Source: a virus
Lineage: Duplodnaviria; Caudoviricetes
Direction: 5' to 3' (one strand)
Length of the DNA: 64,000 nt
Virus record (IMG/VR): IMGVR_UViG_2844571421_000002
Coordinates: 1 to 64,000 of that record
Shown here: positions 34,567 to 55,013 of the stretch, piece by piece
How the letters are laid out: each line of letters starts with the position of its first letter
Position numbering within the stretch: the stretch's first letter is position 1
Notes under the pieces: model-generated
Database searches by the model: none
What the model saw: only the letters and a program-made list of their open reading frames with translations
What the model was told of the DNA's origin: nothing
Position numbers and translations under genes: made by a program

Positions 34567-34782
34567 ATGCCTGATAGCAATGAAGGCACTCCCGAGTTCC
34601 TGACGGTCGATGAGGCCGCAGCACTTCTGCGCGTGAACCGAAAGACACTCTACGAGTCGATTCGGCTGGGTCAGGTGCCGGGAGTCGTTCGCATCGGGAA
34701 AGCGCTGCGAATCCGGCATGCCGCGCTGGTAGAGTCCCCCTCCGGGAAGGGCCGCGATTCTGCGCTTTGGAGTCGACGATGA
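34567..34782 (+). CDS. xis: Excisionase-like HTH protein; start ATG 34567
   Basis: FLTVDEAAALLRVNRKTLYESIRLGQVPGVVRIGKALRI (HTH_17-type), directly upstream of the integrase. Confidence 0.78.
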   Translation: MPDSNEGTPEFLTVDEAAALLRVNRKTLYESIRLGQVPGVVRIGKALRIRHAALVESPSGKGRDSALWSRR

Positions 34783-35999
34783 GCGCCAGGTTGCGGAAGT
34801 GGACGACGAAGGAAGGAAAGTCTGAGGAGGCGTGGCAAGTGGACTTCGTGTTTCAGCATGCGGACGGACGGAAACAGCGAGTCGTGAAGTTCTCGCCCGT
34901 CCAGACCCGTCGGGGTGCTGAGCAATACGAACGCGAGCTGCGCAGCGCCTTGCTCAACGGGACTTTCGGAAAGGAGCAGTGCGGCGAGGAAAGCCCCATC
35001 ACGCTTGCGGACTTCACTCCGCGGCTCCTCACCTACAGCGAGAACAACAACAAGCACTCAAGCGTCGACAGCAAACGACAGATTCTCAGAGACCATATCC
35101 TCCCCTTCTTCGGGAAGGTGGCGCTCGCGAACATCGGCTTGGCCGAAATCGAAGACTTCAAGGCGCACATGCGCAAGAAGAAGTCGGCAGCTCACAAGCG
35201 GAAGGACTCCGCGTCAAAGCGAGCCATCCGGAAGCGGCAGCGTAGCGAACCCAAGCCCCTGAGTCTGAAGACCATCAACAACGTGCTGACTGTGCTTCAC
35301 AAGCTCCTGACGCTCGCAGAAGAGCATGGGGTCATCCGGCAGGCGCCGCGCGTAAAGCCCTTCGGGAAGCTACCGAAGCCTCCCTTCGACTTCCTGAGCT
35401 TTGAGGAAGCGGATCAGCTTCTCGCCGTCGCTGAGCCCGAATGGCGCACGTTGCTGCGCGTCGCCATCAAGACGGGGCTTCGGCAGGGGGAGCTGATCGG
35501 GCTCCAGTGGCACGACCTGACCCTGACGCGGGGCCTGCTTCACGTTCGCAGGACCATTTGGCGCGGGATAGAGGGTTTGCCGAAGGGTGGGCGTGAACGG
35601 ACGGTCGACTTGCCCGCCTCCGTGGTTGATGCGCTCAACGGCCACCGGCACCGTCGGGGGCGGTTCGTCTTCTGTCAGGAGGACGGGCAGCCACTCACCA
35701 AGGGCAAGATGGCGGCACCGCTGGGTCGCGCCCTCCGGGCGGCGGGCATCACCCGCGAAGTGGGGCAAATCGGCTGGCACGATCTGCGCCATACCTACGG
35801 CAGCCATCTCGCGATGAGGGGTGTCCCGCTGAAGGTGATTCAGGAGCTGATGGGGCACGCGACCATCGAGATGACGAATCGCTACGCCCACCTGAGCCCC
35901 GACACTCGGAGAGAGGCAGTCGCCGTTTTGGACCGGCCTCTCGCTCTGCCGTGCGACATACGTGCAACATGGAAGGAGGCCGCTCCTAACTGCACGTAA
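34779..35999 (+). CDS. int: Tyrosine recombinase (phage integrase); start probably ATG 34779
   Basis: TGLRQGEL (R), PKGG (K), HDLRH (HxxR), MGH (H), RYAH (Y). Confidence 0.95.
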   Translation: MSARLRKWTTKEGKSEEAWQVDFVFQHADGRKQRVVKFSPVQTRRGAEQYERELRSALLNGTFGKEQCGEESPITLADFTPRLLTYSENNNKHSSVDSKRQILRDHILPFFGKVALANIGLAEIEDFKAHMRKKKSAAHKRKDSASKRAIRKRQRSEPKPLSLKTINNVLTVLHKLLTLAEEHGVIRQAPRVKPFGKLPKPPFDFLSFEEADQLLAVAEPEWRTLLRVAIKTGLRQGELIGLQWHDLTLTRGLLHVRRTIWRGIEGLPKGGRERTVDLPASVVDALNGHRHRRGRFVFCQEDGQPLTKGKMAAPLGRALRAAGITREVGQIGWHDLRHTYGSHLAMRGVPLKVIQELMGHATIEMTNRYAHLSPDTRREAVAVLDRPLALPCDIRATWKEAAPNCT

Positions 36000-36015: not shown

Positions 36016-36101
36016 TGCACGAGCCGGGGATCGAACCCGGACGGCCCTTACGGGCCAGCGGATTTTAAGTCCGCTGCGTCTGCCAGTTCCGCCACTCGTG
36101 C
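36016..36101 (-). tRNA. trnL: tRNA-Leu (anticodon TAA), CCA not encoded
   Basis: GCACGAG acceptor stem, TGGCGGAACTGGCAGACGC D arm, GCGGA-CTTAAAA-TCCGC anticodon arm, long variable arm, GGTTCGATCCC T arm. Confidence 0.96.
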
Positions 36102-36312: not shown

Positions 36313-37467
36313 CTAGGCCGTCGTCACGTCATCCGGCTTGCGCTTGCCGCGACCACGAGACGGCATGAGCACCATCGAATCCAGCGCCTCTTCTGCCTGA
36401 GCAGCCCGCGCCTTCAACTCGGTTGCGGCGTCGGACTTCGTGAAGGTGCCGCCAAGCCAGGCGCTCAGGTCGGCCGCCAGCTCCCCCGCCGACTGGTAAC
36501 GCTCACGAGGGGCAACCCGAAGTAGCCGGCTCAGCGTCACGCGTAGCCCCTGGGGAAGCCCCTCGGTCATCGCATCTACGTCCGCGGCCTTCAGGGTCGC
36601 CGCACGCCAAATCGCGTCGGACACCAACGGCGGCGCCCCAGTGAGCGTGGCCCGCTTGATTGCCCGAGAGACCCGCCGACGCTTCTTCGTGGACAACGAG
36701 CCCATGACTTCGGGCGTGATGTCGTCGGGGCAAAAGAGCAGGTTCTTCCCCGTCGCCAGTTCGAGCAGCACGACGCCCAGAGTGAAGAGGTCGGAGCGCG
36801 CATCGACGCTCCCCCCTAGAAGCATCTCCGGTGACGAGTAGAAGTGGTCTCCCAACGGGCCGCGCGCGGATGAAGCGACTCGCCCCGGCAAGTCGGACAA
36901 CGCGAGACCGAAGTCGGCGAGCTGAACCGTCCCATCCCAATTGACGAAGATGTGCTCAACGTCGACCGCCCGATGAACGATGTTGAGTGACCGTCCCTGC
37001 GCGTCCTTCGCGGCGTGCGCGTGCTCAAGGGCCGCTGCGACCTGGACACCGACATAGAGCACGAAGAGCGGCGAGAACCATCGCTGACTCTCACCGACGA
37101 GCGTCAGCAGCTCATTCAGGGAGTGGCCGTCCGGGTGCTCCGTGCTGACGTACCAATAGCCCTCGACCTTGTGCAGTCCATGAACCTTGAGGATGGCCGG
37201 GTGCTTGAGGAACGTCGCAAGGCGAACCTGCTCGTCGAGCTTCGCACGCGCACGCATGACCCGGTCGCCTTCCGTTTCCGATGGCGCCGGAACCGCCTTG
37301 AGCAGCACCTTCCCACGCGGCGCGCCGGACGTGGCCCGCAGCCGCGCTACGAACAAGGACATCCCATGGTGAGTCGGCCCCAAGTCCTCGCGGTACTCGT
37401 AGCCGACCCCGCCCGCCGAGAAGAGGATCGCCCCCCGTGGGATCTTGAACTCGATTGCCTTCGACAT
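36313..37467 (-). CDS. Ser/Thr kinase-like protein with degenerate catalytic loop (pseudokinase); start ATG 37467
   Basis: RBS GAGGAG; retains VLLK, DFG, YSSPE and DLFTLG, but HRD is HRA (HRAVDVEH) and there is no GxGxxG loop. Confidence 0.82.
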   Translation of the reverse strand: MSKAIEFKIPRGAILFSAGGVGYEYREDLGPTHHGMSLFVARLRATSGAPRGKVLLKAVPAPSETEGDRVMRARAKLDEQVRLATFLKHPAILKVHGLHKVEGYWYVSTEHPDGHSLNELLTLVGESQRWFSPLFVLYVGVQVAAALEHAHAAKDAQGRSLNIVHRAVDVEHIFVNWDGTVQLADFGLALSDLPGRVASSARGPLGDHFYSSPEMLLGGSVDARSDLFTLGVVLLELATGKNLLFCPDDITPEVMGSLSTKKRRRVSRAIKRATLTGAPPLVSDAIWRAATLKAADVDAMTEGLPQGLRVTLSRLLRVAPRERYQSAGELAADLSAWLGGTFTKSDAATELKARAAQAEEALDSMVLMPSRGRGKRKPDDVTTA

Positions 37468-37618
37468 GCCGTTGCTCCTCGTGTGCGAACTCGCAACCAA
37501 CGCGACGAGGAAAACGCTACCTGCGGCATCTGTTCGAGAGAACGCCTTCACAGGTCATGGGGTCGAAATGGCGTGTTCGCCCCGAAATCGTCCCCCTACC
37601 TATTACGTACCCCAGCGC

Positions 37619-39412
37619 TCAGGGCCAGCGATCCACGACGTAGCCGCCCCCTGAGTTGAACGCCTTCACTCGACCGTCACTGTATCCTTCAGAGTGGGCC
37701 TCGACGACGAAGCACACGGGGCGCTCATCCTGCCCCGGTAACCTCACTCGGTCGTAGCGGATGACCAGCGCGGGTCCGTCCGAGCGGCCCATTCGGTCAG
37801 ATAGGTAATATGCCTTGCCGTAGAAGTGCGTCCCGGGCGGCGCGAACGCATTCTGGACCGAACGAACTCCCTTCGGAACCACCCCCACCACGTCTGCACC
37901 AGCAGTGAACCAAACAACGTCTTCCGGACCATGACGGGCATTGAGGGTGAGGCTGAACGATTGATTTACCTTCCAGCGGAGATCCTCCCGCATCGACTCT
38001 TCCGCACCAGCCGGGCAAGTGAACGCCTCGGGCCGAATTTGGGCACTGGGGCAACCCGCCGCGAGAGCCGCAACGAGCGTCATCGTCGCGCAGTCGGCAG
38101 CTGCGGCAGCTTTCGTCCTCCCGCGTGACTGGCGTCCTTGGGGTGGGACCTCGGGTGACGGAGTCGTCTTCACGGTTGAACCTTCCTTCGGAGCGGCAGT
38201 TACAGGCCCCGTCAGCAGCACAGGCGGGGGGCTAGGAGGTGACATAGCAGGGGCAGACGACGTGAGCGGCGCCGAATAAGGAGGGCTCGGCGGGCGCGGC
38301 GCACCAGCGATGGTCTGCGACCCGGTCTCCGTGGGTTCCCCTCGGGCGAGCAAGAAGCCCCCGACTGCTACTAGCGAGATGAGAGTAGCCACTCCCGCCA
38401 TGAGGCCCCTTCCAGTCCGCACAGGGCCACGCTCAAGGGCATCTGGCGAGTTCGGCACCTCTACGGCAGGGCGCACCGGCTCAGGTGCTTCCGGCTTCCG
38501 TTGCTCGGACGGCGGATGCACCGGGCATAGGAATTCCGCACTCGAATAGGCCAGGAGTTCGCCCAGCTCACGACGTAGAGCCTCTGAGTCGACGGGGCGC
38601 TTGGCCGGGTCACGCGACAGGATGCAATCAACGAGGTCGTTCAGCGCTTCTGGAACACGCACGTTCAACGCACGAGCAGGAGGCGGCTTCATGACGGTGC
38701 TGTTGAGCGTAACTCGCGCTTGAACCTCCGTCGGTCGGGGGTCAGTCAGCAACTCATAGAGCATTGCCCCGACGGCGAAAATCTCGTCCGCAACCTGGAA
38801 GGCGTACTTCGCTCGCTGTTCGGCCTTGTGCTCCCGGAGCCATGTGAACTGTTCCGGCGCACGAAAGCGGTCAGTTCCCGGCGGCAAGCCCCAATCCGTC
38901 AGCTCTTCAGCCAACGAGTAGCTCGCACAGCTAAAGTCGATAACGACCGGCTCTCCATCGCTCTTCCGAATTAGAACGTTGGACAGCTTCAAATCCCGAT
39001 GCAGGACGCCACGGCCGTGCATGTACGAAAGCGCGGCGGAAACCTTATCGAAGACCTGCAAGACCTCTTGAACCGTGGGGTGTTTACGCTCTGCCCATTC
39101 GGCAAGGGTCCACCCCTCTACGTACTCGAGCGCAAGGTAGACATTCCCCTGTTCGGAGTATCCATACCCACGGTGCTTGACGATGTTCGGATGGTCCAGG
39201 AGGAGGAGTGCCGAAAGCTCCCGAAGCGTCCGCGCGTGAGTCTGCTTGTCGTCCCCACTCGAATCCCGGTGACGCGCCAATTTGAGCGCGCATCTGCGAC
39301 CGTGCTTCTCGACGAGGTAGACGACGGCAAACCCTCCGTTTCCAAGCTCCCGAACAACACTCCATCCGTCGATGGTCGTACCAGGGGGCGGAAACAACGG
39401 AATGACGTTCAT
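37619..39412 (-). CDS. Receptor-type Ser/Thr protein kinase (kinase, TM, Pro-rich stalk, extracytoplasmic beta domain)
   Basis: GNGGFAVV, ALK, HRDLKLSN, DFS, RAPE, DEIFAVG; TM GLMAGVATLISLVAVGGFLLA. Confidence 0.9.
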   Translation of the reverse strand: MNVIPLFPPPGTTIDGWSVVRELGNGGFAVVYLVEKHGRRCALKLARHRDSSGDDKQTHARTLRELSALLLLDHPNIVKHRGYGYSEQGNVYLALEYVEGWTLAEWAERKHPTVQEVLQVFDKVSAALSYMHGRGVLHRDLKLSNVLIRKSDGEPVVIDFSCASYSLAEELTDWGLPPGTDRFRAPEQFTWLREHKAEQRAKYAFQVADEIFAVGAMLYELLTDPRPTEVQARVTLNSTVMKPPPARALNVRVPEALNDLVDCILSRDPAKRPVDSEALRRELGELLAYSSAEFLCPVHPPSEQRKPEAPEPVRPAVEVPNSPDALERGPVRTGRGLMAGVATLISLVAVGGFLLARGEPTETGSQTIAGAPRPPSPPYSAPLTSSAPAMSPPSPPPVLLTGPVTAAPKEGSTVKTTPSPEVPPQGRQSRGRTKAAAAADCATMTLVAALAAGCPSAQIRPEAFTCPAGAEESMREDLRWKVNQSFSLTLNARHGPEDVVWFTAGADVVGVVPKGVRSVQNAFAPPGTHFYGKAYYLSDRMGRSDGPALVIRYDRVRLPGQDERPVCFVVEAHSEGYSDGRVKAFNSGGGYVVDRWP

Positions 39413-40272
39413 GGAGTTCCCCCGGAAGCAGCCTTTGGCAACCTCACATTGGGAATCGTGAGAGTGCGACCGTCCCCCACCACCTCCAGAGTAAAGACAG
39501 GGCTTGCACTCAACTTTGCTGTCTCGGCAACCACGAGAATTCGGCCGTATCCGCCTGAAGGCATTGCGCCCGAATCAACTGTTACGATGCGCGCCTTTAG
39601 CGGCAGTCCGACGCGTCCAGTCAGCGTGGCTACTCGCGGCACCCAAGGTGGTTGCCCGAGGTTGTTCCGTATCTCCGCATCCACAAGAACCCACCCCTGT
39701 CCGCGATAGGCCACCGCGGACACTACAGCGAAGCCTTGTGCCGCATCTCCACGTCCCTTGATGAGCGTTGCCGTTACGCCCTCCTTGTCGACATACCCCA
39801 GCATCACGAAGTCTTCAGGTCTGGGCATTCGCGGTTCGTCAACCGGGCATCCCTCGGCTGTCATCTCGGGGCGCTGAACATTGATCTGAATGTCCACTTC
39901 AGCCGGGTCCGTCACCAGCGAGAAGGCAGCTCGCGTGGGTGCCCTGCCATCCGCGAAGAAGACCCCAACTTCGTAGCGCTCACCTTCGGCAAGGTCTGCC
40001 ACTGGCTGAACGATGACCGACCGTTCTCCGGCGTCTAGAACGCGAATCCGCGACTCGTCGAAGGTAAGGGTCTTCCGGTTGATGGGAGCGGGGAACAGGA
40101 AGAGCGTCGGCGTGTCGCGCGCCACTCGGACGACAGGATGTGGATCGGTAGGGCTGTTTGCAACGGACACCGCTCGGTCCCGCTTCGCTCGTTCCGCTTG
40201 TTCCGCCATGGCTGGCGTCGCAGCCCCCCACGCGAGAACTAGTGCAAGGGCCAATCTGACCGGTTGGATCAA
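39409..40272 (-). CDS. DUF2381 / TIGR02268-type exported protein
   Basis: Signal peptide (…ATPAMA-EQ); VVRVARDTPTLFLFPAPI, VGVFFADGRAP, DVQINV-like segment, AYRGQGWVLVDAEIRN; stop/start overlap with the kinase, the usual myxobacterial arrangement. Confidence 0.8.
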   Translation of the reverse strand: MIQPVRLALALVLAWGAATPAMAEQAERAKRDRAVSVANSPTDPHPVVRVARDTPTLFLFPAPINRKTLTFDESRIRVLDAGERSVIVQPVADLAEGERYEVGVFFADGRAPTRAAFSLVTDPAEVDIQINVQRPEMTAEGCPVDEPRMPRPEDFVMLGYVDKEGVTATLIKGRGDAAQGFAVVSAVAYRGQGWVLVDAEIRNNLGQPPWVPRVATLTGRVGLPLKARIVTVDSGAMPSGGYGRILVVAETAKLSASPVFTLEVVGDGRTLTIPNVRLPKAASGGTP

Positions 40273-40495: not shown

Positions 40496-40798
40496 CTATC
40501 GGTTCGCAAGCTTCGCAACGGCGAACCCGGCCCCAAGCCCAGCAAGCAGGGCCACGACGGCGACCGTGAAGGACACGTCCCCGGCCTGCTGGCGTAACGA
40601 CTCGTTCTCGGCGCGCAGCCGCGCAATCTCCGAAGCGGTTCGAATGCAGCGGCTTTCCGACAGCCAGCAGCCGCCCTCCACCTCTACGGCTGCCGTGCCT
40701 CCATCGGGGAAGAGCTGCGCGCGCTCGACGCTGATGACCTCCGAGCCCGACGCGGGAAGCGCGAGCAGCACAGCCAGCACGAGCGCGCCGAGCTTCAC
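40496..40798 (-). CDS. Last lysis-cassette gene, putative spanin-like protein (signal peptide, coiled coil, C-terminal TM)
   Basis: 100 aa; intact copy of the IS-broken gene at 1722-1937. Confidence 0.55.
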   Translation of the reverse strand: MKLGALVLAVLLALPASGSEVISVERAQLFPDGGTAAVEVEGGCWLSESRCIRTASEIARLRAENESLRQQAGDVSFTVAVVALLAGLGAGFAVAKLANR

Positions 40799-41247
40799 TT
40801 GTCGCCCCGGGTGTCGAGCTGTTCCAGCACAGCAATCGCTGCGGCCTTCTCCGCGACCTGCCCAGCGGCAATCGCGCCCGCCAGCTCGGCGCGGGCAATG
40901 GCGGCGCTCCCGAACAGAATCCGCTTGAAGATGGTGAAGCCACCAGCGGCCGTCAGGGCGACTTGCAGCGCGGTCAGCATCAGGGCCAACGAGAACGGAG
41001 CCCCCGCAGCGAGCGCGTTCGCTACCGCTCCGGCGAGGGAGACGCCAAGCACGAGAACGGCGCCGCCCCTGTCGGTATTGAAGAACGGGACGAACCCGCC
41101 ACCGAACCTCCGCAGCAGGTAGACGAGCACCACCACCACCAGGGCGGCGAGTAGCGCGTAGTTCCTACTCGTCACGGCATCGAGAAGAAGGCGCGCGAAC
41201 TCCTCGAACTGCTCGGGGTTCGGCCCGACTGCACCAGCGTCAACCAT
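40795..41247 (-). CDS. Multi-pass membrane protein, putative holin
   Basis: Paralog of 1934-2386. Confidence 0.6.
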   Translation of the reverse strand: MVDAGAVGPNPEQFEEFARLLLDAVTSRNYALLAALVVVVLVYLLRRFGGGFVPFFNTDRGGAVLVLGVSLAGAVANALAAGAPFSLALMLTALQVALTAAGGFTIFKRILFGSAAIARAELAGAIAAGQVAEKAAAIAVLEQLDTRGDK

Positions 41248-41259
41248 GTTGCCTCCGGG

Positions 41260-41793
41260 TTAGAAGCCCAGCCGCTCCAGTTCGGCCGCGAGCTTCGGGT
41301 TTGCTGCACGCCACTTCGGCGACAGGCGCTCGGCATCGAGGCGAGCCCACACGTCGGCGAGGGAACTCTGTTGGACCAGGGTGCGAAGCGGCGTGAGCTG
41401 AAGCGCGCTCACGTAGCCCGGCCACTGCACATGGGGGGAGTCGCCGAACCTGCCGCCCCAGACGAGCCCCGCCTTCGTGGATTCCTCACCCAGCACGCGG
41501 TAAGCCGACTCGCGCCAATCCGGCTGCACGCCAGGTCGCGGGCTCGCGTCACAAACGAAGTCGAAGGCGAGGCCGTAGTTGTGCGCGGACAAGCCTGCGG
41601 ATGATGCCTTGCCGCCCATGCCCGCGAGGAAAGAGCGCCGCAGCTCAACCTGCTCTTCGAGGCTACGGAAGCCGTAGGTCGCGACATAGCTCGCGCCACG
41701 GGCATCGCAACGCGCCACGACCTGAAGGGCGACCGACACGAGCGGCAGGTAGACGCGGTCAAGGTCGACCCGCTTGAAGTTGGCTCGGGTCAC
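41260..41793 (-). CDS. Endolysin, M15-family peptidase; start GTG 41793
   Basis: SAHNYGLAFD and DSPHVQ motifs; same length as 2399-2932; GTGA overlap. Confidence 0.85.
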   Translation of the reverse strand: MTRANFKRVDLDRVYLPLVSVALQVVARCDARGASYVATYGFRSLEEQVELRRSFLAGMGGKASSAGLSAHNYGLAFDFVCDASPRPGVQPDWRESAYRVLGEESTKAGLVWGGRFGDSPHVQWPGYVSALQLTPLRTLVQQSSLADVWARLDAERLSPKWRAANPKLAAELERLGF

Positions 41794-42077
41794 CGGGAAT
41801 CCCCCGACGCGGCCTGGGCCCTGCGAAGAAGCTCCAACTCCACCGTCTGCCGGACCTGAACAGGAAGACCGACGGCAAACTCGTCGCGCCACCGCCGCAA
41901 GGCACCCAACTCCACCGCGAGGGCGTTGATGCGCTCGTCCTGGCGGGCGACCTTCTCGACGAGCGAGCGGATCTCCCCCACAAGGGACTTCGCGGCCCAG
42001 GTGAGGACACCGACTCCCGCCGTTCCGAGCAGGGAGCCGACTACGAGCTGAATGGACTGGGTCTCTTCTGCGGTCAC
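41790..42077 (-). CDS. First lysis-cassette gene (TM plus coiled coil)
   Basis: Paralog of 2932-3216. Confidence 0.7.
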   Translation of the reverse strand: MTAEETQSIQLVVGSLLGTAGVGVLTWAAKSLVGEIRSLVEKVARQDERINALAVELGALRRWRDEFAVGLPVQVRQTVELELLRRAQAASGDSR

Positions 42078-42106
42078 GGCATCACCGGGGATTAGGAGTG
42101 CCCCAG

Positions 42107-42137
42107 GTAAATGCGTGCGACTTCAGAGCGTGGCCCA
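42107..42137 (-). promoter_or_regulatory. Putative phage-sigma promoter for the lysis cassette
   Basis: TGGGCC-ACGCTCTGAAGT-CGCACGCATTTAC. Confidence 0.68.
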
Positions 42138-42275
42138 TCGCGCCACAGGTGCGAAGCTCCGCGCCCAGTAACGGAGTCCTGCCCTACTCAACCCACACGA
42201 CCTGTGATTAGCTTCCGAGAATAGCAAGGACGCCCCTTCGGCAAGCCCCTGATGCCGCCAATACCCGGAAATCCC

Positions 42276-43256
42276 ATGCCTTCAACATCCGCGATTCTAG
42301 AACTCCAAGAACTGGCGCGCTCCCAAACGAGTGTGACGGATCTGCTTCGGCACGCAAAGGCCGTCGCCTCAAAGCTTGGGCTCGACGAATTCGAGGAATG
42401 GATTCGACATGAGATGAATGGCTATCCAGACGCCATCAAAGTCCCTGAATACCGAACAATATCTTCCAAGTTAATGTCCACAGATCTTATCCAAGGAAGA
42501 ATCCCCATCGCACTCAAGGATGATTCCCACCTAGTCGAATATTTCTCAAGAACTTCTCTTGCACACCCCATCAGCCAAATCCTCCATATACTACAAACAA
42601 CTACCGGCCCGACATTCGAAAGCGAACTTAGTCCAAAAGAACAGGCAAAACTCCCCGAGGAAGTATCCCATAGGCTTCCACTCGTTCGGCGCTACTCCAC
42701 CTCAAGCCTTGCATCAATCCCTGACGCCGTTCGAGACAACGTGCTCGACTGGGCGCTAAGGCTTGAGAAGCAGGGTGTCGCCGGAGAGGGGATGATATTT
42801 ACACAGAAGGATCGTCAAATCGCCCAAATGGTTACCATCAACAACTTTGGCTCACTCATTCAAGGCGATCACGCCAATCTCGCCACGGCAAATAACTCAC
42901 CGGGAGCAGCAGTGTCGGCAGCATCAGGCGACGCACGGACTCATCAGCGGCTTTTCAAGTCAATCGAAGCAGTCAAGAACAGCGATTCCCAGCTAGGCGA
43001 AGCACTCACACAACTCGCAAATGCCATCTCCAGCAGCAAGACACTCGCCTCCGAAAAGAAGACCGAAGCCACCGAGCAACTAGCATTTGTAGCCGAGCAA
43101 TGCGCTCTCCCGGCGGAGCAGCGCCAACCCAAAACTATCCACAGGCACATTCTTTGGCTATTGCGAGAGACATTGGGCCTTGGCGCTGACGTATTGCAGG
43201 TGTGGACTACCTTCGGCCCGATGCTCTGTGCGGCACTCAGTGTGTCACTCTCCTGA
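42276..43256 (+). CDS. AbiTii-domain protein, copy 1 (candidate abortive infection); start probably ATG 42276
   Basis: ILELQELA...VTDLLRHAKAVASKLGLDEFEEWIRHEMNGY is the AbiTii N-terminal pattern; AT-richer; opposite to the phage arm. Confidence 0.78.
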   Translation: MPSTSAILELQELARSQTSVTDLLRHAKAVASKLGLDEFEEWIRHEMNGYPDAIKVPEYRTISSKLMSTDLIQGRIPIALKDDSHLVEYFSRTSLAHPISQILHILQTTTGPTFESELSPKEQAKLPEEVSHRLPLVRRYSTSSLASIPDAVRDNVLDWALRLEKQGVAGEGMIFTQKDRQIAQMVTINNFGSLIQGDHANLATANNSPGAAVSAASGDARTHQRLFKSIEAVKNSDSQLGEALTQLANAISSSKTLASEKKTEATEQLAFVAEQCALPAEQRQPKTIHRHILWLLRETLGLGADVLQVWTTFGPMLCAALSVSLS

Positions 43257-43885: not shown

Positions 43886-44869
43886 ATGCCGCCGAAATCA
43901 GCAATTCTTGAACTCCAGGAACTCGCCCGCTCAGAAAAGACCAGCATAACAGAGCTACTGCGACACGCCAAAACCGTAGCATCCAAACTCGACCTCGACG
44001 AATTTGAAGCATGGATCAAGTACGAGATGAACGGCTATCCCAATGGAAATAGCGTTCCTGCATATCGGATTATCCCATCGAAATTGATGGCCAAGAATCC
44101 AGTCCGCGGAAACATCCCTGTCGATCTCGACGAAGTCCCCGATTTGGCGAAATATTTCGCTACAACTCCCTTACCCCAGCCCATTAGTCAAATTCTCCAT
44201 ATCGTCCAGACGAACAAGAACTCGACGCTTGAGGCACCACTTCTCACAGAGGAAATGACAGGCTTACTAAATGGCCTAACCATCAGATACCCGCTTATTC
44301 GGTGCTTCTCCAGATCCAACTTCGCCTCCGTACTTGATGCAGTCAGAGACACCGTCCTTGATTGGGCCCTTAAGCTTGAAAAGAAAGGAGTAACAGGAAA
44401 AGGCATGGCCTTCACACAACAAGACCGCCAAACCGCTCAAGTATTGACAATTAACAACTTTGGCTCTCTCATCCAAGGCGACCACGCCAACCTAGCCACC
44501 GCTCATAATTCGCCTGGAGCGGCTGTCTCCGCATCGTCTGGGATGGCCAAAACCCACCAACGCTTGAATAAGTCGATCGAAACTGCAGAAGCTCGCGACG
44601 TCCGACTCGGCGAGGCGCTACGGCAATTGGCAACTGCAGTCACATCAAGCCAATCGCTTGAGTCTGGTCAAAAGCAAGAGGCGACCGAGCAACTCACATT
44701 CATAGCCGAACAGTGTGCGCTCCCGCCAGAGCAGCGCCAGCCGCTGACCATTCAGAAGGGAATCCTCGGGAATCTACGAGAGACACTCGGTCTCGGAGCG
44801 GATGTGCTGCAAGTCTGGACCACATTCAGTCCAGTCATCTACGCCGCCCTAATCAACACATTATCCTAA
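43886..44869 (+). CDS. AbiTii-domain protein, copy 2
   Basis: Colinear with copy 1 (ILELQELARS...LLRHAK.VASKL...EMNGY; INNFGSLIQGDHANLATA; LRETLGLGADVLQVWTTF) but clearly diverged. Confidence 0.78.
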   Translation: MPPKSAILELQELARSEKTSITELLRHAKTVASKLDLDEFEAWIKYEMNGYPNGNSVPAYRIIPSKLMAKNPVRGNIPVDLDEVPDLAKYFATTPLPQPISQILHIVQTNKNSTLEAPLLTEEMTGLLNGLTIRYPLIRCFSRSNFASVLDAVRDTVLDWALKLEKKGVTGKGMAFTQQDRQTAQVLTINNFGSLIQGDHANLATAHNSPGAAVSASSGMAKTHQRLNKSIETAEARDVRLGEALRQLATAVTSSQSLESGQKQEATEQLTFIAEQCALPPEQRQPLTIQKGILGNLRETLGLGADVLQVWTTFSPVIYAALINTLS

Positions 44870-44985: not shown

Positions 44986-47900
44986 TCATTCGCGAGGCTT
45001 TAGGTTATGCGCCAGTAGCCCTTGCACAACGTAGGTCCTGGCGAAGCGAACGGAGATCTTCATCACGTCGCCAGCGACCGCAGGTGCCACGCTCGCCACA
45101 CGCCCCGGAGCGACACCGTCGATTGTCTCTCCGGAACGAAGATTGTCGGTGCGCGTCCAGCCACGCTCGAACGTCCGCCAGCGATGCTCCGGCGTCACGA
45201 CGAGCACACGCCCATCCGTCATGGTGAGCATGCAACGCGCTGCCTGATGCCTGCTGACGTGCGTCACCTCGAAGATGCCGCCATCTCTCTCGTGCTCGTG
45301 CATGGTGAGCACCTTCATCCCGGGACGAAGCATTTCGGCGGGCACTTCGGAACCATCGGCGAGCAACACCGGCTCCCACGGCGCGACACAGGTTCCGTGC
45401 GAGCCACCGCCACCGCCACCGCCACCAGTTGGCGTTGATGCGGGCCCCGTCGAACTGCGGACCATGTTGACGTTGTAGCTGCTCGGCGGGAAGAACCATC
45501 GCTCGGCGCTGTAGCCGCTCGCGTTATGGAGCCGCACCTTCAGGTAAAGCAGCTTGTTCGTCATCGTGTCCCGCAGCCGGTTGAACCTGTCGCCATACAT
45601 GAAGGTAAAGCCCGCGCTCGTCGCGTTGCTGGCATCGCCGTCGACCGCGCCGTTCTGATACTTGCGGTCAGCCAGCGGCACCGACGTCCCATAGAGCCAC
45701 TGGGGCGCGTTGCTGTCGCTATACGCCCAGTAGAACCCCACCTCCATGAAGCGCAGCGCATCGAGGTTGTCGCTCACCGACTGGGGCTGGATGACGGCAT
45801 GGTAGTGAGCCCAGGTGAAGTTCGCCGCGCCACCAGCAGCCCCGGCAATGGCGTACCCCTCAAGCACCTGGACGTTCAGCCGGTCGATGTTCGGAACGCC
45901 CTCGTTGTTGCCTCGGTAGTAGATGCGGCTTCCCGTGTCGGCGAGGGCCTGGACCGAACGGAAGAAGCCGTCGCTCAGGTAGTAGCGCCCCACCTGGACG
46001 TTGTTAGAGGCCACCTTGAGCGTCGTTCCGACGTTGTCGAGCTTCGCCCCGGCCGTGGGGATGCCGCTGCCGTCTTCGGCGTAGTTGGACGTCTTGAGGG
46101 TGTTCGCCGCGAGCAAGTCGAAGGTGACCATCTTCCGCATGGAGACGGCATCGAAGTAGAGCCGCTTCCCCACGTCGGCCGCCGCCACCTGGGTTTCCCA
46201 GAAGAGCTGAACCCCCGTGCAACCGGCCGGGCATGTACCCTTCACGGTGACACGCCGGTACGACGTTCCGAGCTGCCCCAAAAAGACGCCCGTATTCTGG
46301 CCCGCGTAGGCGCCGCTTCCGTCCTCCCACAGCAAATGAAGGGTTCCCATGCCCCCGACGGTGACGGACGACGCCTTGACGTAGACCTCGGCGAAGAAAT
46401 CGTCCCCAGGGGAGCACTTGAGCCGCCCGCCTGGAACCTCCGAGCCGTACCCGCCCGTCCAGCTCAGCCCCGGCCACGCCCCCGTGTTCATCAGCTCCAC
46501 CCGGCGCACCCAGCGGCCCACCCGGGCATTGACAGGGTCCTCAACGAGCCTGTCACCGTCGGGCGACTTCCCCACGGCGCGAATGCCCGCTTCGTTGTAG
46601 CCGTTCGGAATGAGGTTGTCGGTGGGCGGGTACAGCAGATGCTGGAAGCCGACCGCGGCATCGCTCAGCGACGCGCCCTCAAGCTGCTTCGGCGTGACGG
46701 CGAGCTGAGGCGACGCGTCCCCCCGGTTGCCGAAGCGGTCTCGAGGAACGACACGGACGAAGTAGGTCGTCCCCGGCATCAGGTCGGACACTCCGAATGC
46801 CGTTGTGTCGAACGTCCCGCGCAGGGTGGAGCTGCTCGGCGTGAAGCCGCTGGACGTCGAAACGTGCAGCTCGTACCCCGAAGCAACTGGGCCACTCGAA
46901 GCCGGGGTGAGGGACAGTGAGAAGCCATTCACGACGGCCGTCACGTTGATGTTCAGCGGGACATGCGGTGGGGACGTGTGCGCGGGCTCGCCCAGGCCGG
47001 GACGCGTGTCCATCTCCAGCCACATGGACACGCCGAAGGAGGGCTTCCCGCGCGTTGTAAGCGTGGTGCGTGCGTCTCCCTCTGAGGCGAAGACGTGGCG
47101 AAACCCGGTGACTGCCAGGTTCTGCGCTTCCGAGTAATGAACGCCGTTGGGGAGGAACCGGTAGAGGTCGCCCAGCTCCAACGGCAGGAAGAAGTCGAGG
47201 TCGATTTCCTGGTCGGCGAGCGGCTCGCACAAGTCGGACAAAGCCGCTTCCGCCATCCTCCGCGCTTCAACGTCGCGGTTGATGTTGCTCGAAGCGTCCT
47301 CGGCGATTTGCATGTAGCGAACGCCGTAGGCGGCCTGACTCGCGGCGTCTTCGACGACGACGCTCTTCGTTTTCGACTGCCCCGTGACGTCCAAGTCACT
47401 CGTGTCCGAATAGACGACCTCCACCTTGTTCCGAACGTCTGTCCTGCTCACCACGAGCTTCGCGACGTCGCGGTAGTCGTTCGGGCCGTAGGTCCACGCG
47501 AGCGGCGGATTTGTGCGGTTGGGCTCGGTGAACGTCAACGCGAATGTCCCGCTCGACTCGCGCCAGCGATAGCGCGCCTCCCAGCCAATCTGCTGAGCCA
47601 GGTCGCGAACGGCGTCGAGGACGCTCGCCTTTTTCTGCGCGTACTGACGGAGCCTCCACCCTGGGGACACCGGGGTATGGAGCGCCACGCCCGTCCCGTT
47701 GTCCGTCAGGATGGCCTGCATCACCGCTTCGACGGCAACGCCCTGGACGTCGTTCCCGTATGCCCGCTCAACCTCAATGAACGTGTCTTGGAGTCGGCCG
47801 CCCAAGTCACGCCCACGAAAGACGAGCTGCTCACCCGCGAAGTCGACTTCGTCGATGTCCCCATGAAACAGCGTGTGCCACTCGCTCTCGCTGGGCGACA

Positions 47901-48222
47901 TGCCAATGGGCGAAACCGCAGCCTCGACGACAAACTCTCTTCCCGGCCGGATGAGCTGCCCGTTTGCGGCATTCAGCTTCGAGTCGGCCCGGAGCGGGGC
48001 CACGCTGAAGAGTTCGATTTGCAGCTTGAGCGTCACCGTCGCGGCCGAAACGGGCTGGTCAACGTCCTCGTCCACCTCGACGGCGTCGAGAAAGTCGCGG
48101 CCCTCAAGCTGGCTCAGATTCCGCCACGTCCCCGCGTCGTCGAGCACCTTCACCCGAACATGGGAAGCGTGTCCGGCCGGGCTCGTGAGCGCCGCCAATC
48201 CCTGAGACGACATGCTGCGCAT
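44986..48222 (-). CDS. Tail tip / hub protein with C-terminal Hint domain
   Basis: 1078-aa paralog of 4408-7644; Hint domain CVAPWEPV...TPEH...LAHN-LKPRE. Confidence 0.8.
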   Translation of the reverse strand: MRSMSSQGLAALTSPAGHASHVRVKVLDDAGTWRNLSQLEGRDFLDAVEVDEDVDQPVSAATVTLKLQIELFSVAPLRADSKLNAANGQLIRPGREFVVEAAVSPIGMSPSESEWHTLFHGDIDEVDFAGEQLVFRGRDLGGRLQDTFIEVERAYGNDVQGVAVEAVMQAILTDNGTGVALHTPVSPGWRLRQYAQKKASVLDAVRDLAQQIGWEARYRWRESSGTFALTFTEPNRTNPPLAWTYGPNDYRDVAKLVVSRTDVRNKVEVVYSDTSDLDVTGQSKTKSVVVEDAASQAAYGVRYMQIAEDASSNINRDVEARRMAEAALSDLCEPLADQEIDLDFFLPLELGDLYRFLPNGVHYSEAQNLAVTGFRHVFASEGDARTTLTTRGKPSFGVSMWLEMDTRPGLGEPAHTSPPHVPLNINVTAVVNGFSLSLTPASSGPVASGYELHVSTSSGFTPSSSTLRGTFDTTAFGVSDLMPGTTYFVRVVPRDRFGNRGDASPQLAVTPKQLEGASLSDAAVGFQHLLYPPTDNLIPNGYNEAGIRAVGKSPDGDRLVEDPVNARVGRWVRRVELMNTGAWPGLSWTGGYGSEVPGGRLKCSPGDDFFAEVYVKASSVTVGGMGTLHLLWEDGSGAYAGQNTGVFLGQLGTSYRRVTVKGTCPAGCTGVQLFWETQVAAADVGKRLYFDAVSMRKMVTFDLLAANTLKTSNYAEDGSGIPTAGAKLDNVGTTLKVASNNVQVGRYYLSDGFFRSVQALADTGSRIYYRGNNEGVPNIDRLNVQVLEGYAIAGAAGGAANFTWAHYHAVIQPQSVSDNLDALRFMEVGFYWAYSDSNAPQWLYGTSVPLADRKYQNGAVDGDASNATSAGFTFMYGDRFNRLRDTMTNKLLYLKVRLHNASGYSAERWFFPPSSYNVNMVRSSTGPASTPTGGGGGGGGSHGTCVAPWEPVLLADGSEVPAEMLRPGMKVLTMHEHERDGGIFEVTHVSRHQAARCMLTMTDGRVLVVTPEHRWRTFERGWTRTDNLRSGETIDGVAPGRVASVAPAVAGDVMKISVRFARTYVVQGLLAHNLKPRE

Positions 48223-48228
48223 GGTTTC

Positions 48229-48990
48229 CTAAACCTCTCGCAAGGTGAATTCGAGCCGCTCGCCGATGACGCGCGCCCCTTCGTGGATGAATTCGACGAA
48301 CTCGCCGTCCCGCACTTCGCCAAGCACCTTCGTCTCGCCGACGCGGAAGGCCCCGCCCGCAGTCAGGTACGGCAACGCGCTCCAGGCGCGAGCCGAGTGC
48401 CACAAGGCCACTTCCGGAACCCACGCGTCCGGCGCCATGAAAGGCAGCCCGACGACGTCGTCGAAGCGCCGCAGGTTGAGCGCCCCGGTCAAAGACAGTG
48501 AGCCACTGGAGACGCTCAGCCCGCCCGCGCTCGCCGCAGCCGTCCCCTGAATCCAGCGCGCCCCATCGCTCCGGTTGATGACCTGGAGCCAGACGCCTCC
48601 CGTGGCATCGAAGAGATGGTGCAGCGTCGTCCAGCGGGGCCCGAGCTGCATCGCCCAGGAGCAAGACACGCCCAGGGGTAGTTCGAAGCCGCCACCGAAG
48701 CGCGCGCCTTGAAAGAGGCTCCCTGTCGCAATCGATGGGGCAAGCCCCCGACTCGTGAAGGTGTCGCCGTCGAACGCGAGTGCATGGCCGTCCCCGGCAA
48801 TCAGCCCACGGAAGGCCAACGCCTCGACGGACGACAGAGGCCCCGTCTTGAACTCCCACTCTTGGCGCGTCGCGCGGCGCCCAAGCCGGTAGACGCCGCT
48901 GAATGAGCGCGAGTCGACGCCGATGCTCACCTGCCTACGCCGTCCCTCGACAACGGGCACGGTGATGCCATTCAAGCTCAGGAAGGGCAT
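48229..48990 (-). CDS. Distal tail (Dit-like) protein; start ATG 48990
   Basis: Paralog of 7651-8412. Confidence 0.55.
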   Translation of the reverse strand: MPFLSLNGITVPVVEGRRRQVSIGVDSRSFSGVYRLGRRATRQEWEFKTGPLSSVEALAFRGLIAGDGHALAFDGDTFTSRGLAPSIATGSLFQGARFGGGFELPLGVSCSWAMQLGPRWTTLHHLFDATGGVWLQVINRSDGARWIQGTAAASAGGLSVSSGSLSLTGALNLRRFDDVVGLPFMAPDAWVPEVALWHSARAWSALPYLTAGGAFRVGETKVLGEVRDGEFVEFIHEGARVIGERLEFTLREV

Positions 48991-48991
48991 T

Positions 48992-51370: not shown

Positions 51371-51376
51371 GACGAA

Positions 51377-51595
51377 TCACCTCTTGCGCAAACGCCGAAT
51401 GGATTGCTGGCCCGGCTGCGACACGCCTGGGGCCTGTTGATTGGAAGAGCGCCTTTCGAGTTCGTCAGCCTCTCTTCGCGCATAGGCGACGAGCCCGACG
51501 ACATCCTCATAAGGCATTTCACGGACTGCGTCGGGCGGCAGTTTCAGGAGAGAGGCAACCCCGTAGAGCAGGCTCGCTTCGGGGTCGCTGTCTAT
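51377..51595 (-). CDS. gpT-like frameshift extension of the tail chaperone
   Basis: Slippery GGGAAAA at 51601-51595; the -1 frame is open to TGA 51377, same length as in prophage 1. Confidence 0.78.
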   Translation of the reverse strand: MDSDPEASLLYGVASLLKLPPDAVREMPYEDVVGLVAYARREADELERRSSNQQAPGVSQPGQQSIRRLRKR

Positions 51596-51945
51596 TTTCC
51601 CCGCATCTTCTCTTCGCTGACGTTGAAGACATCCGTCAGGTCCGTCGCGAGGTCTTCAAGCCACGACTCATCGAGCAGCTCGTCGATGTCGTTGACGGAG
51701 AACATCGGGCGGCCCGTCTCCGCATCGTGAAGCACGCAGACGGCGATGCGCCCCAGCATCCGCGCTCCGGCCCTGTCTCCCGTCGGCTCGTTCTTCTCCG
51801 TCATCTCCCCGGCCTCGCGGGCCTGCTCAATCAGCCGCAGCCGGTCGCCCATCGTCGGCTTGATGATGTTCACCTTGACGCCGTCCACCTCCACCGACTT
51901 CAGGACGCGACGATTCTTCGCAAGCAGCTTGTGCTTGTTCGACAT
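51592..51945 (-). CDS. Tail assembly chaperone (gpG-like)
   Basis: Protein identical to 11014-11367. Confidence 0.82.
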   Translation of the reverse strand: MSNKHKLLAKNRRVLKSVEVDGVKVNIIKPTMGDRLRLIEQAREAGEMTEKNEPTGDRAGARMLGRIAVCVLHDAETGRPMFSVNDIDELLDESWLEDLATDLTDVFNVSEEKMRGK

Positions 51946-51976
51946 GGACTCTCCTTCAGGTGTGAAACGAGACTGC

Positions 51977-52639
51977 TCAGGGCGAGCCGTAGCCCCAGGC
52001 GAAAACGGCGCCGTCCTCGGACTGGAAGGCGAAGCCGAGGAACTTCATGGTGTGCTCGTACAGGGCCCCGGGCGTCAGCTTGTGAGACAGCTCAGGCACC
52101 TTGACCCACGCGCGGAAGACTTGAGCCCCGGATGCCTTGCCAACTTCGATGAGCAGCGGAGTCCCTTCGGCCAGTGCTTCAACCTCGAGCTCAGTAAGGG
52201 CCAGCCCCGTCAGCTCCCCCGAAAAGTCCCGGAGCGACACCGAACGCCGCTTGTAGGCGTCCCCCATGACTTGCAGCTCGACGACGTCGTTCGTCACCGT
52301 GAGGGAGATGGAGCGCACCAGGGCGAGCGGATGGACGGGCAACGCGTAGCCCGAGACGCGCACGAGGGCCGACGGGCCGGGAGCGCTGGCGAGTTGGACG
52401 TCGCCGAAGAGCGGGTCGACGTAGGCGTCGACAGGTGTCCAGGCGTCGGCATCCCCACTGGGGGAGACCTCGACGAACACGGGAGCGCCCGGATTGAGGC
52501 GGCGAAGCTCGGGGTCCGCGATTCGAAACTCGGTCCCCGTGAAGTCGGGCGCGGGCATGGGCACGGCTTCGGATTCGAGGAACTCGGCAGGCTCACCCGC
52601 AATAGACAGCGAGCCGACATGCGCAGCGATGGCGGCCAT
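51977..52639 (-). CDS. Tail-associated protein, possibly a second tube-like protein
   Basis: Paralog of 11400-12062. Confidence 0.5.
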   Translation of the reverse strand: MAAIAAHVGSLSIAGEPAEFLESEAVPMPAPDFTGTEFRIADPELRRLNPGAPVFVEVSPSGDADAWTPVDAYVDPLFGDVQLASAPGPSALVRVSGYALPVHPLALVRSISLTVTNDVVELQVMGDAYKRRSVSLRDFSGELTGLALTELEVEALAEGTPLLIEVGKASGAQVFRAWVKVPELSHKLTPGALYEHTMKFLGFAFQSEDGAVFAWGYGSP

Positions 52640-53064: not shown

Positions 53065-53072
53065 GTGAATAC

Positions 53073-53489: not shown

Positions 53490-53497
53490 TGCCCCCG

Positions 53498-54924: not shown

Positions 54925-55013
54925 GGAAGGGGCTCAGGACGGCGTAGGAACGACGAAGCCGGGGCCCCCAGGGGAAAGGAGCCCCGGCCCGGGAAATGCG
55001 GCGTGGCGCGGCG

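Follow-up and report, generated by a model that had tools for sequence, protein, structure and literature searches.

A cassette of three co-directional genes in a Myxococcus xanthus prophage encodes what appear to be the two outer-shell proteins of a type IV secretion machine (T4SS), VirB9 and VirB10, surviving without the machine, with the VirB10-like protein fused to a Ser/Thr kinase. This arrangement looks like an envelope-spanning sensor, and a literature search found no publication describing it. The window analysed here is the stretch of 64,000 nucleotides of the IMG/VR record IMGVR_UViG_2844571421_000002 (Caudoviricetes), in which the cassette occupies positions 36313-40272 on the - strand. 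The genes code for an exported DUF2381 protein (39409-40272, 287 aa), a 597-aa membrane Ser/Thr kinase (37619-39412) and a pseudokinase (36313-37551, 412 aa). The preliminary description of these genes and their sequence motifs was confirmed in full. Its interpretation, that a VirB9-like and a VirB10-like protein form an envelope-spanning ring fused to a kinase that could sense outer-membrane breach, phage or neighbor contact, is partly supported: the assignment by motif resemblance was largely right, but the ring remains an inference, and none of the present analyses links the module to phage sensing, defense or the lysis-lysogeny switch.

Organization of the cassette

The first two genes overlap in ATGA, the start of the kinase overlapping the stop of DUF2381. 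Pfam and NCBIfam assign DUF2381/TIGR02268 to the first protein (E 6e-58 and 6e-79, respectively), Pkinase to residues 18-280 of the second (E 2e-36), and a partial Pkinase match to the third (E 3e-17). The motifs VRVARDTPTLFLFPAPI and YRGQGWVLVDAEIRN are present in DUF2381, and LVAALAAGC, PPGTHFYG, LVIRYDRVRLPG and PVC are found in the tail of the kinase. The arrangement is not due to chance, as DUF2381 is directly followed by this kinase in 43 of 45 Myxococcaceae loci, the other two being fragments, and the pseudokinase follows in 30 of the 37 loci with enough downstream sequence. Purifying selection is evident for all four folded parts (DUF2381, kinase domain, barrel and pseudokinase), with dN/dS values of 0.06-0.3, whereas the proline-rich stalk reaches 0.31-0.65.

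The 597-aa protein is a bitopic kinase with the layout of VirB10. Its Hanks-type kinase domain (38573-39361, -) retains K44, E65, HRDLK..N (138-145), D159 and APE, which are nearly invariant in the family alignment, although D159 is found as DFS instead of DFG. The domain is followed by a single predicted transmembrane helix at residues about 337-357 (38342-38404, -; hydropathy maximum 2.29 at residue 337), a stalk with 23% proline at residues 358-440 (38093-38341, -), a hydrophobic stretch ending in Cys454, and a β domain. The third protein is a cytoplasmic pseudokinase of 384-412 aa, depending on the start. Its catalytic loop reads HRAVDVEH and its Gly-loop is degenerate, while K85 and DFG are kept. 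This is a conserved property, as the loop reads HRA.D..H instead of HRD.K..N in 32 of 35 homologues, which keep the VAIK lysine and DFG.

The kinase ORF harbors a putative second start. A conserved internal ribosome-binding site, GAAGGAAGG (38181-38189), is followed by a 7-nt spacer and an in-frame GTG (38171-38173, Val414), together spanning 38171-38189 (-), predicted to initiate a nested 184-aa prolipoprotein. The 35 kinase ORFs examined (33 distinct motif sequences) keep RAG-GAA-GGW-TCM-NCC-[G/T]TG. GAA is used 35/35 times against a background of 31%, all 12 Leu codons are TTG against 11%, and all 23 Val codons are GTG against 39%. The start is followed by a lipoprotein-type signal peptide (38051-38170, -) with a basic n-region, a hydrophobic h-region and the lipobox-like AAGC containing Cys454 (38051-38053); L, A, A, L, G and C are invariant in the alignment. 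Stand-alone homologues start with textbook lipoprotein signal peptides, and together these features suggest that the barrel is also made alone as a lipoprotein.

The cassette is the terminal cargo of one unit of a tandem prophage. A tRNA-Leu(TAA) found by ARAGORN (36016-36101, -) lies directly after it at the junction between the two units, and homology to a related locus (L007) ends exactly at the 3' end of this tRNA. The tyrosine integrase of the neighboring unit is at 34767-35999 (+; Pfam Phage_integrase, E 7e-32), and lysis genes lie just upstream of the cassette (40795-41892, -), consisting of an M15 endolysin (41260-41892) and ORF150 (40795-41247), based on Pfam and PHROGs. The module is not phage-specific, however, but belongs to a paralogous family with 13-22 DUF2381 matches in each of three complete Myxococcaceae genomes, of which some members are lipoprotein-only and some sit next to real T4SS operons.

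Predicted relationships to VirB10 and VirB9

The evidence for the VirB10 link is strong. The C-terminal domain of the kinase (residues about 466-597; 37622-38017, -) was modeled with AF2 (pLDDT 86.5, pTM 0.80) as a β-barrel without a predicted antenna helix pair. Structural similarity to T4SS core proteins, the absence of which had been named beforehand as a refutation, was found: the top Foldseek hits are all VirB10 homologues, albeit with weak E-values (4e-3 to 0.4) and TM-scores of 0.35-0.44. In an exhaustive VIA search, the top 7 of 48,161 PDB chains are VirB10 homologues (Z 5.0-7.3, rmsd 3.2-4.0 over 98-107 residues), with the next unrelated hit at Z 3.6, although a Z of 7 is within the range seen for chance best hits. 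The nearest clusters outside the family in ESM Atlas are TrbI (TM 0.52). This protein itself does not match Pfam TrbI or CagX, but sequence profiles provide a bridge. The Pfam TrbI model hits kinases in other Myxococcota; of five tested, one reaches 36.0 bits against a cut-off of 35, and the other four fall just below it (E 2e-7 to 2e-5), with Pfam TraM matches listed for four of the five. Three of the five have a full-length Pfam DUF2381 gene directly upstream, and the other two have only a weak N-terminal DUF2381 match or a weak CagX match. Comparison by hhalign of the barrel profile with these domains gives a probability of 95.4% (E 1.8e-8), and of these domains with canonical TrbI 92.9% (E 3.8e-7).

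The VirB9 link rests on the fold only. DUF2381 has a signal peptide, by inspection, at about residues 1-23 and two β-sandwich domains at about 29-133 (39874-40188) and 167-277 (39442-39774). For its AF2 model (pLDDT 82), the top 6 Foldseek hits are DotH, TraK, VirB9 and TrwF (E 1e-8 to 6e-7), and the top 2 VIA hits are TraK and VirB9 (Z 10.6 across both domains). β-sandwich folds are common, and many unrelated chains score Z 8-9.7. Sequence-level support is weak: profile comparison of DUF2381 with canonical VirB9 is not significant (hhalign E 0.03), and only weak Pfam hits to DotH_IcmK, CagX and DUF4138 appear among 27 diverse family members. Nevertheless, DUF2381 sits next to the VirB10-like gene, as virB9 sits next to virB10.

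DUF2381 and the barrel appear to be partners. All 13 Corallococcus coralloides loci pair them, including 4 loci in which the barrel is a stand-alone lipoprotein. The partial Mantel correlation between DUF2381 and the barrel, given the kinase domain, is 0.69 (p 0.0005), while that between the barrel and the kinase domain, given DUF2381, is −0.05, although these statistics are not free of shared ancestry and linkage. A natural swap exists, as in comparison with the related locus L113, the kinase domain and pseudokinase are 95% identical, but DUF2381 is 69% and the barrel 81% identical. The origin of the pair is indicated by three genomes of related Myxococcota (loci L100-L102), in which it heads a complete VirB operon. 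In contrast, no VirB4 was found in the provirus or in the three complete Myxococcaceae genomes, which supports the earlier claim that the ATPase is missing; pilin and relaxase, also claimed to be absent, were outside this search.

A proposed signaling module derived from a secretion system

The cassette is best explained as a VirB9-VirB10 outer-membrane-core pair that has lost its secretion machine and become the extracytoplasmic part of a Ser/Thr kinase signaling module, a reading to which a probability of about 0.6 is assigned. The analyses are taken to establish the export and VirB9 fold of DUF2381, the VirB10 layout of the kinase with a diverged TrbI domain as its barrel, the adjacency, purifying selection and co-variation of the pair, its occurrence with a recognizable TrbI domain in related Myxococcota, and the lack of a T4SS, judged by VirB4, in the Myxococcaceae version. 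The remainder is inference. In this view, the barrel would have lost the antenna that forms the outer-membrane pore in VirB10 and gained a lipid anchor, and would be made in two forms, one tethered to the kinase through the stalk and one alone as an outer-membrane lipoprotein. DUF2381 and the barrels would assemble at the outer membrane, and changes in this assembly or in envelope geometry would be passed down the stalk to switch the cytoplasmic kinase, which then would act together with, or on, the pseudokinase. The topology of the full-length protein is uncertain, as the internal signal peptide would face the wrong way if the stalk is periplasmic; the tethered form may thus behave differently from this model, or the barrel may act mainly as a separate lipoprotein. 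Expression in lysogens is implied by array data for strain DK1622 (PMC3986340).

A less likely possibility is that the module serves social or cell-state signaling of the host, with the lipidated barrel and DUF2381 reporting outer-membrane state or cell-cell contact, possibly including outer-membrane exchange of lipoproteins, and feeding into phase variation or development, while prophages merely spread copies. The pseudokinase MXAN_1234, the DK1622 orthologue, and its paralogues MXAN_2177, 3183 and 4841 are 35-46-fold lower in tan variants and in asgB mutants, and 12-24-fold lower in xre228 mutants (PMC3986340). Transposon insertions in two such clusters are over-represented in spores (bioRxiv 10.64898/2026.08.28.747804). 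The family is restricted to social myxobacteria and is massively expanded, and SitA-like lipoprotein toxin and immunity pairs are frequent neighbors. The expression data are correlative, however, the exchange of the lipoprotein between cells is conjectural, and many copies sit in mobile elements, which fits selfish or conflict functions at least as well.

The phage or superinfection sensor of the preliminary description, in which detection of adsorption or envelope breach would trigger abortive infection, exclusion or prophage induction through the pseudokinase, is somewhat more doubtful. Consistent with this idea, the cassette sits in the cargo slot between the lysis genes and the att/tRNA junction, beside two AbiTii genes, and related copies lie beside polymorphic toxin-immunity pairs, integrases, serine recombinases and phage tail or lysis genes. 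The periplasmic parts diverge faster than the kinase domain and are swapped between otherwise near-identical cassettes. Kinase-only defense systems exist, and the kinase domain matches the PADLOC models PD-T4-6 and mad6, but this is generic kinase similarity, and DUF2381 matches no defense model. Further arguing against this reading are the 13-22 DUF2381 matches per genome, some without a kinase and some next to T4SS operons, selection that is purifying rather than positive in all folded parts, and the only published data, which tie the genes to yellow/tan phase variation and sporulation fitness.

It is unlikely that the fusion is incidental, with the barrel working only as a free lipoprotein together with DUF2381, for example as an outer-membrane structural or exclusion factor, and the kinase and pseudokinase forming an independent cytoplasmic pair. 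The conserved internal start and lipoprotein signal, the occurrence of DUF2381 plus a stand-alone lipoprotein without any kinase, and the awkward orientation of the signal peptide would support this. However, the ORF linking kinase, TM, stalk and barrel is kept intact in the 35 Myxococcaceae kinase ORFs and in the distant kinase-TrbI fusions, which have no such internal motif, and the TM-plus-stalk layout matches VirB10 itself. Least likely is convergent or generic β-fold similarity of an ordinary periplasmic sensor domain and an unrelated Ig-like protein, which the modest barrel scores and the non-significant VirB9 profile comparison would allow, but against which stand the independent hits of two neighboring genes to the two partners of one complex, the first rank of all seven VirB10 representatives, the profile bridge, the matching domain and gene order, and the relatives inside a VirB operon.

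Comparison with known systems

The cassette corresponds to the paralogous DK1622 clusters MXAN_1232-1234, 2177, 3183 and 4841 (Dziewanowska et al. 2014, PMC3986340). MXAN_1232 is 78% identical to this DUF2381, and in a close relative of DK1622 the cassette likewise ends a prophage of the same type. That paper treats the clusters only as phase-variation-regulated kinase genes, without a structural or T4SS assignment and without noting the prophage context or the nested gene.

With the VirB10/TrbI family (TraF of pKM101, TrwE of R388, TraB of F, CagY, DotG and ComB10; PF03743), the kinase shares the order of cytoplasmic N-terminus, TM helix, proline-rich periplasmic stalk and C-terminal barrel, the P-x-G-T...G and R-[YF]-x-R-[LV]-x-L-P core motif, and a neighboring VirB9-like gene. 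It differs in that the N-terminus is a full Hanks kinase domain, the barrel is about 60 residues shorter, and no helix pair is predicted where VirB10 has its antenna, near the C-terminus of TraF. A lipoprotein signal and conserved internal start precede the barrel, and no VirB4, VirB8 or VirB11 lies nearby or elsewhere in the genomes tested. Like VirB9, TraK, DotH and TrwF (CagX, PF03524; T4BSS_DotH_IcmK, PF12293), which are its best fold matches in the PDB, DUF2381 is an exported protein of about 260 mature residues with two β-sandwich domains in the same order, adjacent to the VirB10-like gene and, in this window, translationally coupled to it. It lacks significant sequence or profile similarity to these proteins, no VirB7 partner gene was noticed, and it belongs to its own Pfam family, found only in Myxococcota in the searches performed here. 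Receptor-type Hanks kinases with extracytoplasmic sensor domains, such as PknB with PASTA repeats, and kinase-pseudokinase pairs similarly combine a cytoplasmic catalytic domain and an outside sensor module with a catalytically degenerate partner encoded beside it. Here, the putative sensor is instead a secretion-system barrel that appears to pair with a separately exported protein and probably reaches the outer membrane, accompanied by a predicted nested second product.

The cassette and its place in a tandem prophage

The 77-kb IMG/VR provirus record to which the window belongs lies in a 9.26-Mb Myxococcus xanthus chromosome (CP017170.1). Three genes are found on the - strand of the window, encoding a DUF2381/TIGR02268 protein of 287 aa (39409-40272), a Ser/Thr kinase of 597 aa (37619-39412) and a kinase-like protein of 412 aa (36313-37551), the first two of which overlap in ATGA. 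The kinase consists of a catalytic domain, one hydrophobic helix at about residues 337-357, a stalk with 23% proline at 358-440, a basic-then-hydrophobic stretch ending in an invariant Cys454, and a beta-rich domain at 466-597 that has no Pfam match. The preliminary description had reported this operon and a set of sequence motifs within it, and that observation holds, as all of the motifs are present.

The window holds two tandem, related prophage units of about 41 kb. Positions 4412-20207 match 44990-61366 and the lysis genes at 1722-3258 match 40583-42119 at about 94% identity, or 85-94% nucleotide identity when the match between 20794-21840 and 62954-64000 is included. This arrangement recalls the polyploid Mx-alpha prophage of M. 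xanthus, and explains why an integrase and a tRNA lie in the middle of the record. The gene order in a unit is integrase, excisionase-like HTH, replication genes, structural genes, cargo, lysis genes, cassette and tRNA-Leu(TAA), and the cassette is therefore the last cargo of one unit, at the inter-unit junction. In the left unit, the slot after the lysis genes, where the right unit has the kinase cassette, holds a Mu/rve-type DDE transposase gene (1-1635, - strand) that is cut by the window edge. Two diverged AbiTii genes (42252-43256 and 43886-44869, + strand) lie between the tail-fibre gene and the lysis genes, whereas the related prophage in locus L003 has different genes at that position (193- and 220-aa ORFs with no Pfam match). 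Homology to L003 stops at the pseudokinase stop codon, where host genes begin, and homology to the prophage in locus L007 stops at the tRNA 3' end. The tRNA-Leu(TAA) follows the cassette in two different prophages (36016-36101 in the window, 10170-10256 in L007), but a search for a second copy of its 3' end as an att repeat found none in the record. A promoter and terminator scan was uninformative.

Elsewhere the family often lies near integrases, large serine recombinases, IS66, phage tail and lysis genes, SUKH immunity genes, and especially lipoprotein AHH-nuclease toxins with Imm11 immunity genes (SitA/SitI-like). The latter recur right next to the cassette, at L003 7905-9809 and L111 16062-17949, and also in loci L006, L007, L029, L038 and L055. 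HHpred hits of SitA2 to T4SS core-complex entries have been reported in a 2025 paper (PMC12390754). No DUF2381 was found in GenBank phages, a search of IMG/VR returned one other provirus, and a BFVD fold search gave nothing clear. In three complete Myxococcaceae genomes, DUF2381 gives 13-22 matches per genome. In Corallococcus coralloides, all 13 copies have a barrel gene next to them; nine are kinase fusions, in either gene order, and in four loci (L052, L054, L055 and L056) DUF2381 is followed by one or two small stand-alone barrel genes with textbook lipoprotein signal peptides and no kinase. Two records titled Comamonas sp. KCTC 72670 / JC664 (L018 and L050) carry typical Corallococcus-like cassettes; the organism label looks wrong, or the assembly is of a myxobacterium.

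Predicted folds and sequence links to VirB10 and VirB9

An AF2 model of the C-terminal domain of the kinase, built with 36 homologues, is confident (pLDDT 86.5, pTM 0.80). Foldseek against the PDB ranks only VirB10 homologues at the top (X. citri VirB10, CagY, TraF, TrwE, DotG and ComB10), although the E-values are weak (4e-3 to 0.1). An independent exhaustive VIA search of 48,161 chains puts seven VirB10-family chains first (Z 5.0-7.3, rmsd 3.2-4.0 over 98-107 of about 125 residues), with the next unrelated chain at Z 3.6. In ESM Atlas, the nearest clusters outside the family are TrbI proteins (TM 0.52). The DUF2381 model has a pLDDT of 82 and two beta-sandwich domains. Its six best Foldseek matches are DotH, TraK (twice), VirB9 and TrwF (E 1e-8 to 6e-7), and its two best VIA matches are TraK and VirB9, both at Z 10.6 and both spanning the two domains (residues 30-280). 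Many unrelated single-domain sandwiches reach Z 8-9.7, so the fold alone is less specific here. Two adjacent genes therefore independently match the two partner proteins of one complex, in the virB9-virB10 gene order.

The sequence link to VirB10 is only transitive. No match to Pfam TrbI (PF03743) or CagX was found for these proteins or anywhere in the record, even at E 10, and PDB sequence searches with the barrel and with DUF2381 profiles returned nothing significant, DotH appearing only at E 0.55. A TrbI search of 201 Myxococcota genomes found, besides canonical TrbI genes, weaker hits inside large ORFs that are kinases. A Pfam scan of five of these shows Pkinase plus TrbI; they score 25-36 bits on TrbI, one of them at 36.0 bits against a cut-off of 35 and the other four at E 2e-7 to 2e-5, and Pfam TraM matches were listed for four of the five. 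Three of the five have a full-length DUF2381 gene directly upstream (two by Pfam, E 1e-52 and 5e-49, and one by an HMM derived from the family alignment, E 4e-13), while in one case the upstream ORF gives only a weak N-terminal DUF2381 match (E 7e-6) and in another a weak CagX match (E 0.014). At L094 7084-10306, L096 6981-10277 and L098 3796-7666, other Myxococcota carry DUF2381 next to kinases of 747-780 aa whose C-terminal domain matches Pfam TrbI and TraM directly and has a longer tail that may still contain the antenna, the helix pair of VirB10 that forms the outer-membrane channel.

Profile comparisons link these groups. A diverse barrel profile of 137 sequences aligns to the TrbI domains of these kinases at an HH probability of 95.4% (E 1.8e-8) over 85-102 columns, centred on the P-x-G-T...G / R-[FY]-x-R-[LV]-x-L-P motifs that the preliminary description had picked out, and those domains align to canonical TrbI at 92.9% (E 3.8e-7). 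Direct hhalign of the barrel against three canonical TrbI sequences was not significant (E 0.026-0.5), although it aligns the same motif, and an iterated barrel HMM did not reach the kinase-TrbI fusions directly. The barrel is taken to be a diverged TrbI domain. For DUF2381, hhalign against 19 canonical VirB9 sequences is not significant (E 0.03, probability 1.6%), and only scattered weak Pfam hits occur among 27 diverse members (DotH_IcmK 0.0046, CagX 0.014, DUF4138 0.09). VirB9 homology therefore rests on fold, gene order and partnership.

A probable nested gene and the evolution of the cassette

Inside the poorly conserved stalk, 35 kinase ORFs (33 distinct motif sequences) keep the nucleotide string RAG-GAA-GGW-TCM-NCC followed by GTG or TTG. 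At this motif, Glu is encoded by GAA in 35 of 35 cases against a background of 31% in the same ORFs, Gly by GGT or GGA in 33 of 34 against 34%, Leu by TTG in 12 of 12 against 11%, and Val by GTG in 23 of 23 against 39%. In the window this corresponds to GAAGGAAGG at 38181-38189, a 7-nt spacer, and GTG at 38171-38173, followed by a basic n-region, an h-region and the lipobox-like AAGC, with Cys454 at 38051-38053. The sequences are related, so the counts are not independent events, but the Val-to-Leu change always keeping a start-competent codon is telling. This fits a conserved internal start that would give a 184-aa prolipoprotein and a 144-aa mature protein, in agreement with the stand-alone lipoprotein homologues.

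All four folded parts (DUF2381, kinase domain, barrel and pseudokinase) are under purifying selection (dN/dS 0.06-0.3), whereas the Pro-rich stalk reaches 0.31-0.65. Between this prophage and its relative L003, the synonymous divergence of the cassette (0.65-0.90) is three to four times that of the flanking tail and lysis genes (0.08-0.28), and the cassette alleles are therefore older than the phage backbones and have been exchanged. Against provirus L113, the kinase domain and pseudokinase are 95% identical while DUF2381 is 69% and the barrel 81% identical; the barrel is separated from DUF2381 on the DNA by the kinase domain. Over 32 cassettes, the partial Mantel r(DUF2381, barrel | kinase domain) is 0.69 (p 0.0005), whereas r(barrel, kinase domain | DUF2381) is -0.05. 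This fits co-evolving binding partners, although it is not proof, because shared ancestry and linkage contribute.

Interpretation and comparison with known systems

MXAN_1232 is 78% identical to this DUF2381, so the cassette equals the DK1622 clusters MXAN_1232-1234 and their paralogues. Dziewanowska et al. 2014 (PMC3986340) found the pseudokinase genes to be 35-46-fold lower in tan phase variants and in asgB mutants, and 12-24-fold lower in xre228 mutants, and a 2026 preprint notes that insertions in two such clusters are enriched in spores. Literature searches combining VirB10 or TrbI with kinase, Pkinase or Myxococcus found nothing relevant.

The preliminary description suggested that the operon may be a VirB9-like plus VirB10-like core, fused to a kinase and repurposed as a phage sensor across the envelope, an interpretation that is supported only in part. 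The analysis supports homology and architecture well, whereas it is a reasoned inference, with indirect support from strict adjacency and co-variation, that the pair binds and forms an outer-membrane-anchored assembly coupled to the kinase, and the activity of the kinase is likewise inferred from its residues. The signal could be phage, neighbour contact, envelope state or T4SS state, and the specific idea of a phage sensor is considered unlikely. About as unlikely, though not excluded, is a wider version, in which a prophage-spread, envelope-spanning receptor is built from the VirB9/VirB10 shell of a secretion machine. In this view, a lipid-anchored barrel and a kinase-tethered barrel, made from one gene, would assemble with DUF2381 at the outer membrane and report phage attack, incoming outer-membrane cargo or neighbour contact to a kinase-pseudokinase pair that would control exclusion, prophage induction or social cell state, with the swappable periplasmic pair setting the specificity. 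A spanin-like role for the inner-membrane-anchored protein plus nested lipoprotein was rejected, as the family is mostly chromosomal and multi-copy, occurs next to T4SS operons and carries a conserved kinase.

If the main reading is correct, the cassette would be a clear case of secretion-system core parts being re-used as a signalling device; VirB10 is already thought to pass conformational signals across the envelope, and here it appears hard-wired to a kinase. It gives a structural hypothesis for DUF2381 and for a large, unexplained share of the myxobacterial kinome, and supplies a probable example of an in-frame nested gene that yields both a tethered and a free form of the same domain. 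It also places one of the four phase-variation-regulated DK1622 kinase clusters, MXAN_1232-1234, at the end of a prophage.

Compared with known families, the first protein scores above the curated cut-offs for DUF2381 (PF09544, 196.8 bits against 29.2) and TIGR02268 (265.5 bits against 76). The kinase has the residues of an active Hanks-type Ser/Thr kinase (Gly-loop, VAIK Lys, alphaC Glu, HRD..K..N, DFG Asp and APE), nearly invariant in 37 homologues, except that DFG reads DFS. The third protein is a conserved pseudokinase in which the catalytic Asp and Asn are replaced, with HRA.D..H in 32 of 35 homologues and a degenerate Gly-loop. With respect to kinase-based anti-phage defence (PD-T4-6, Stk2, mad6), the PADLOC hits cover only the kinase domain (E 2e-46), and DUF2381 has none. 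Like VirB9, CagX and DotH, DUF2381 is predicted to be exported, its signal peptide being judged by inspection, and to have two beta-sandwich domains of the VirB9 fold, but it lacks significant profile similarity to these families.

The kinase shares with VirB10/TrbI an N-terminal cytoplasmic part, a single TM helix and a Pro-rich region, as judged by hydropathy and composition, and a C-terminal beta-barrel domain that, in the AF2 model, superposes on solved VirB10 C-terminal domains. Only two short helices are seen in that model (residues 35-42 and 83-88 of the domain), the domain is about 60 residues shorter than VirB10 C-terminal domains, and the HH alignment stops before the roughly 70-residue tail present in the kinase-TrbI fusions; from this, which rests on a predicted model only, it is inferred that the antenna may be lost, in which case no outer-membrane pore would be expected. 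VirB10 is encoded within a T4SS operon with VirB4, VirB8, VirB11 and others, but no VirB4 family match was found in the provirus or in the three complete Myxococcaceae genomes. In contrast, in three other Myxococcota genomes a DUF2381-like gene plus a kinase-TrbI fusion (L100 15980-18839, L101 14312-17182 and L102 1145-3991) sit directly upstream of, and head, a complete VirB-type operon comprising SLT, VirB4, a VirB5-like protein, VirB6, VirB8, VirB9, TrbI and VirB11. These distant relatives may represent the ancestral state and offer a tractable route to what such a module senses, and their arrangement suggests an origin by duplication inside a T4SS locus.
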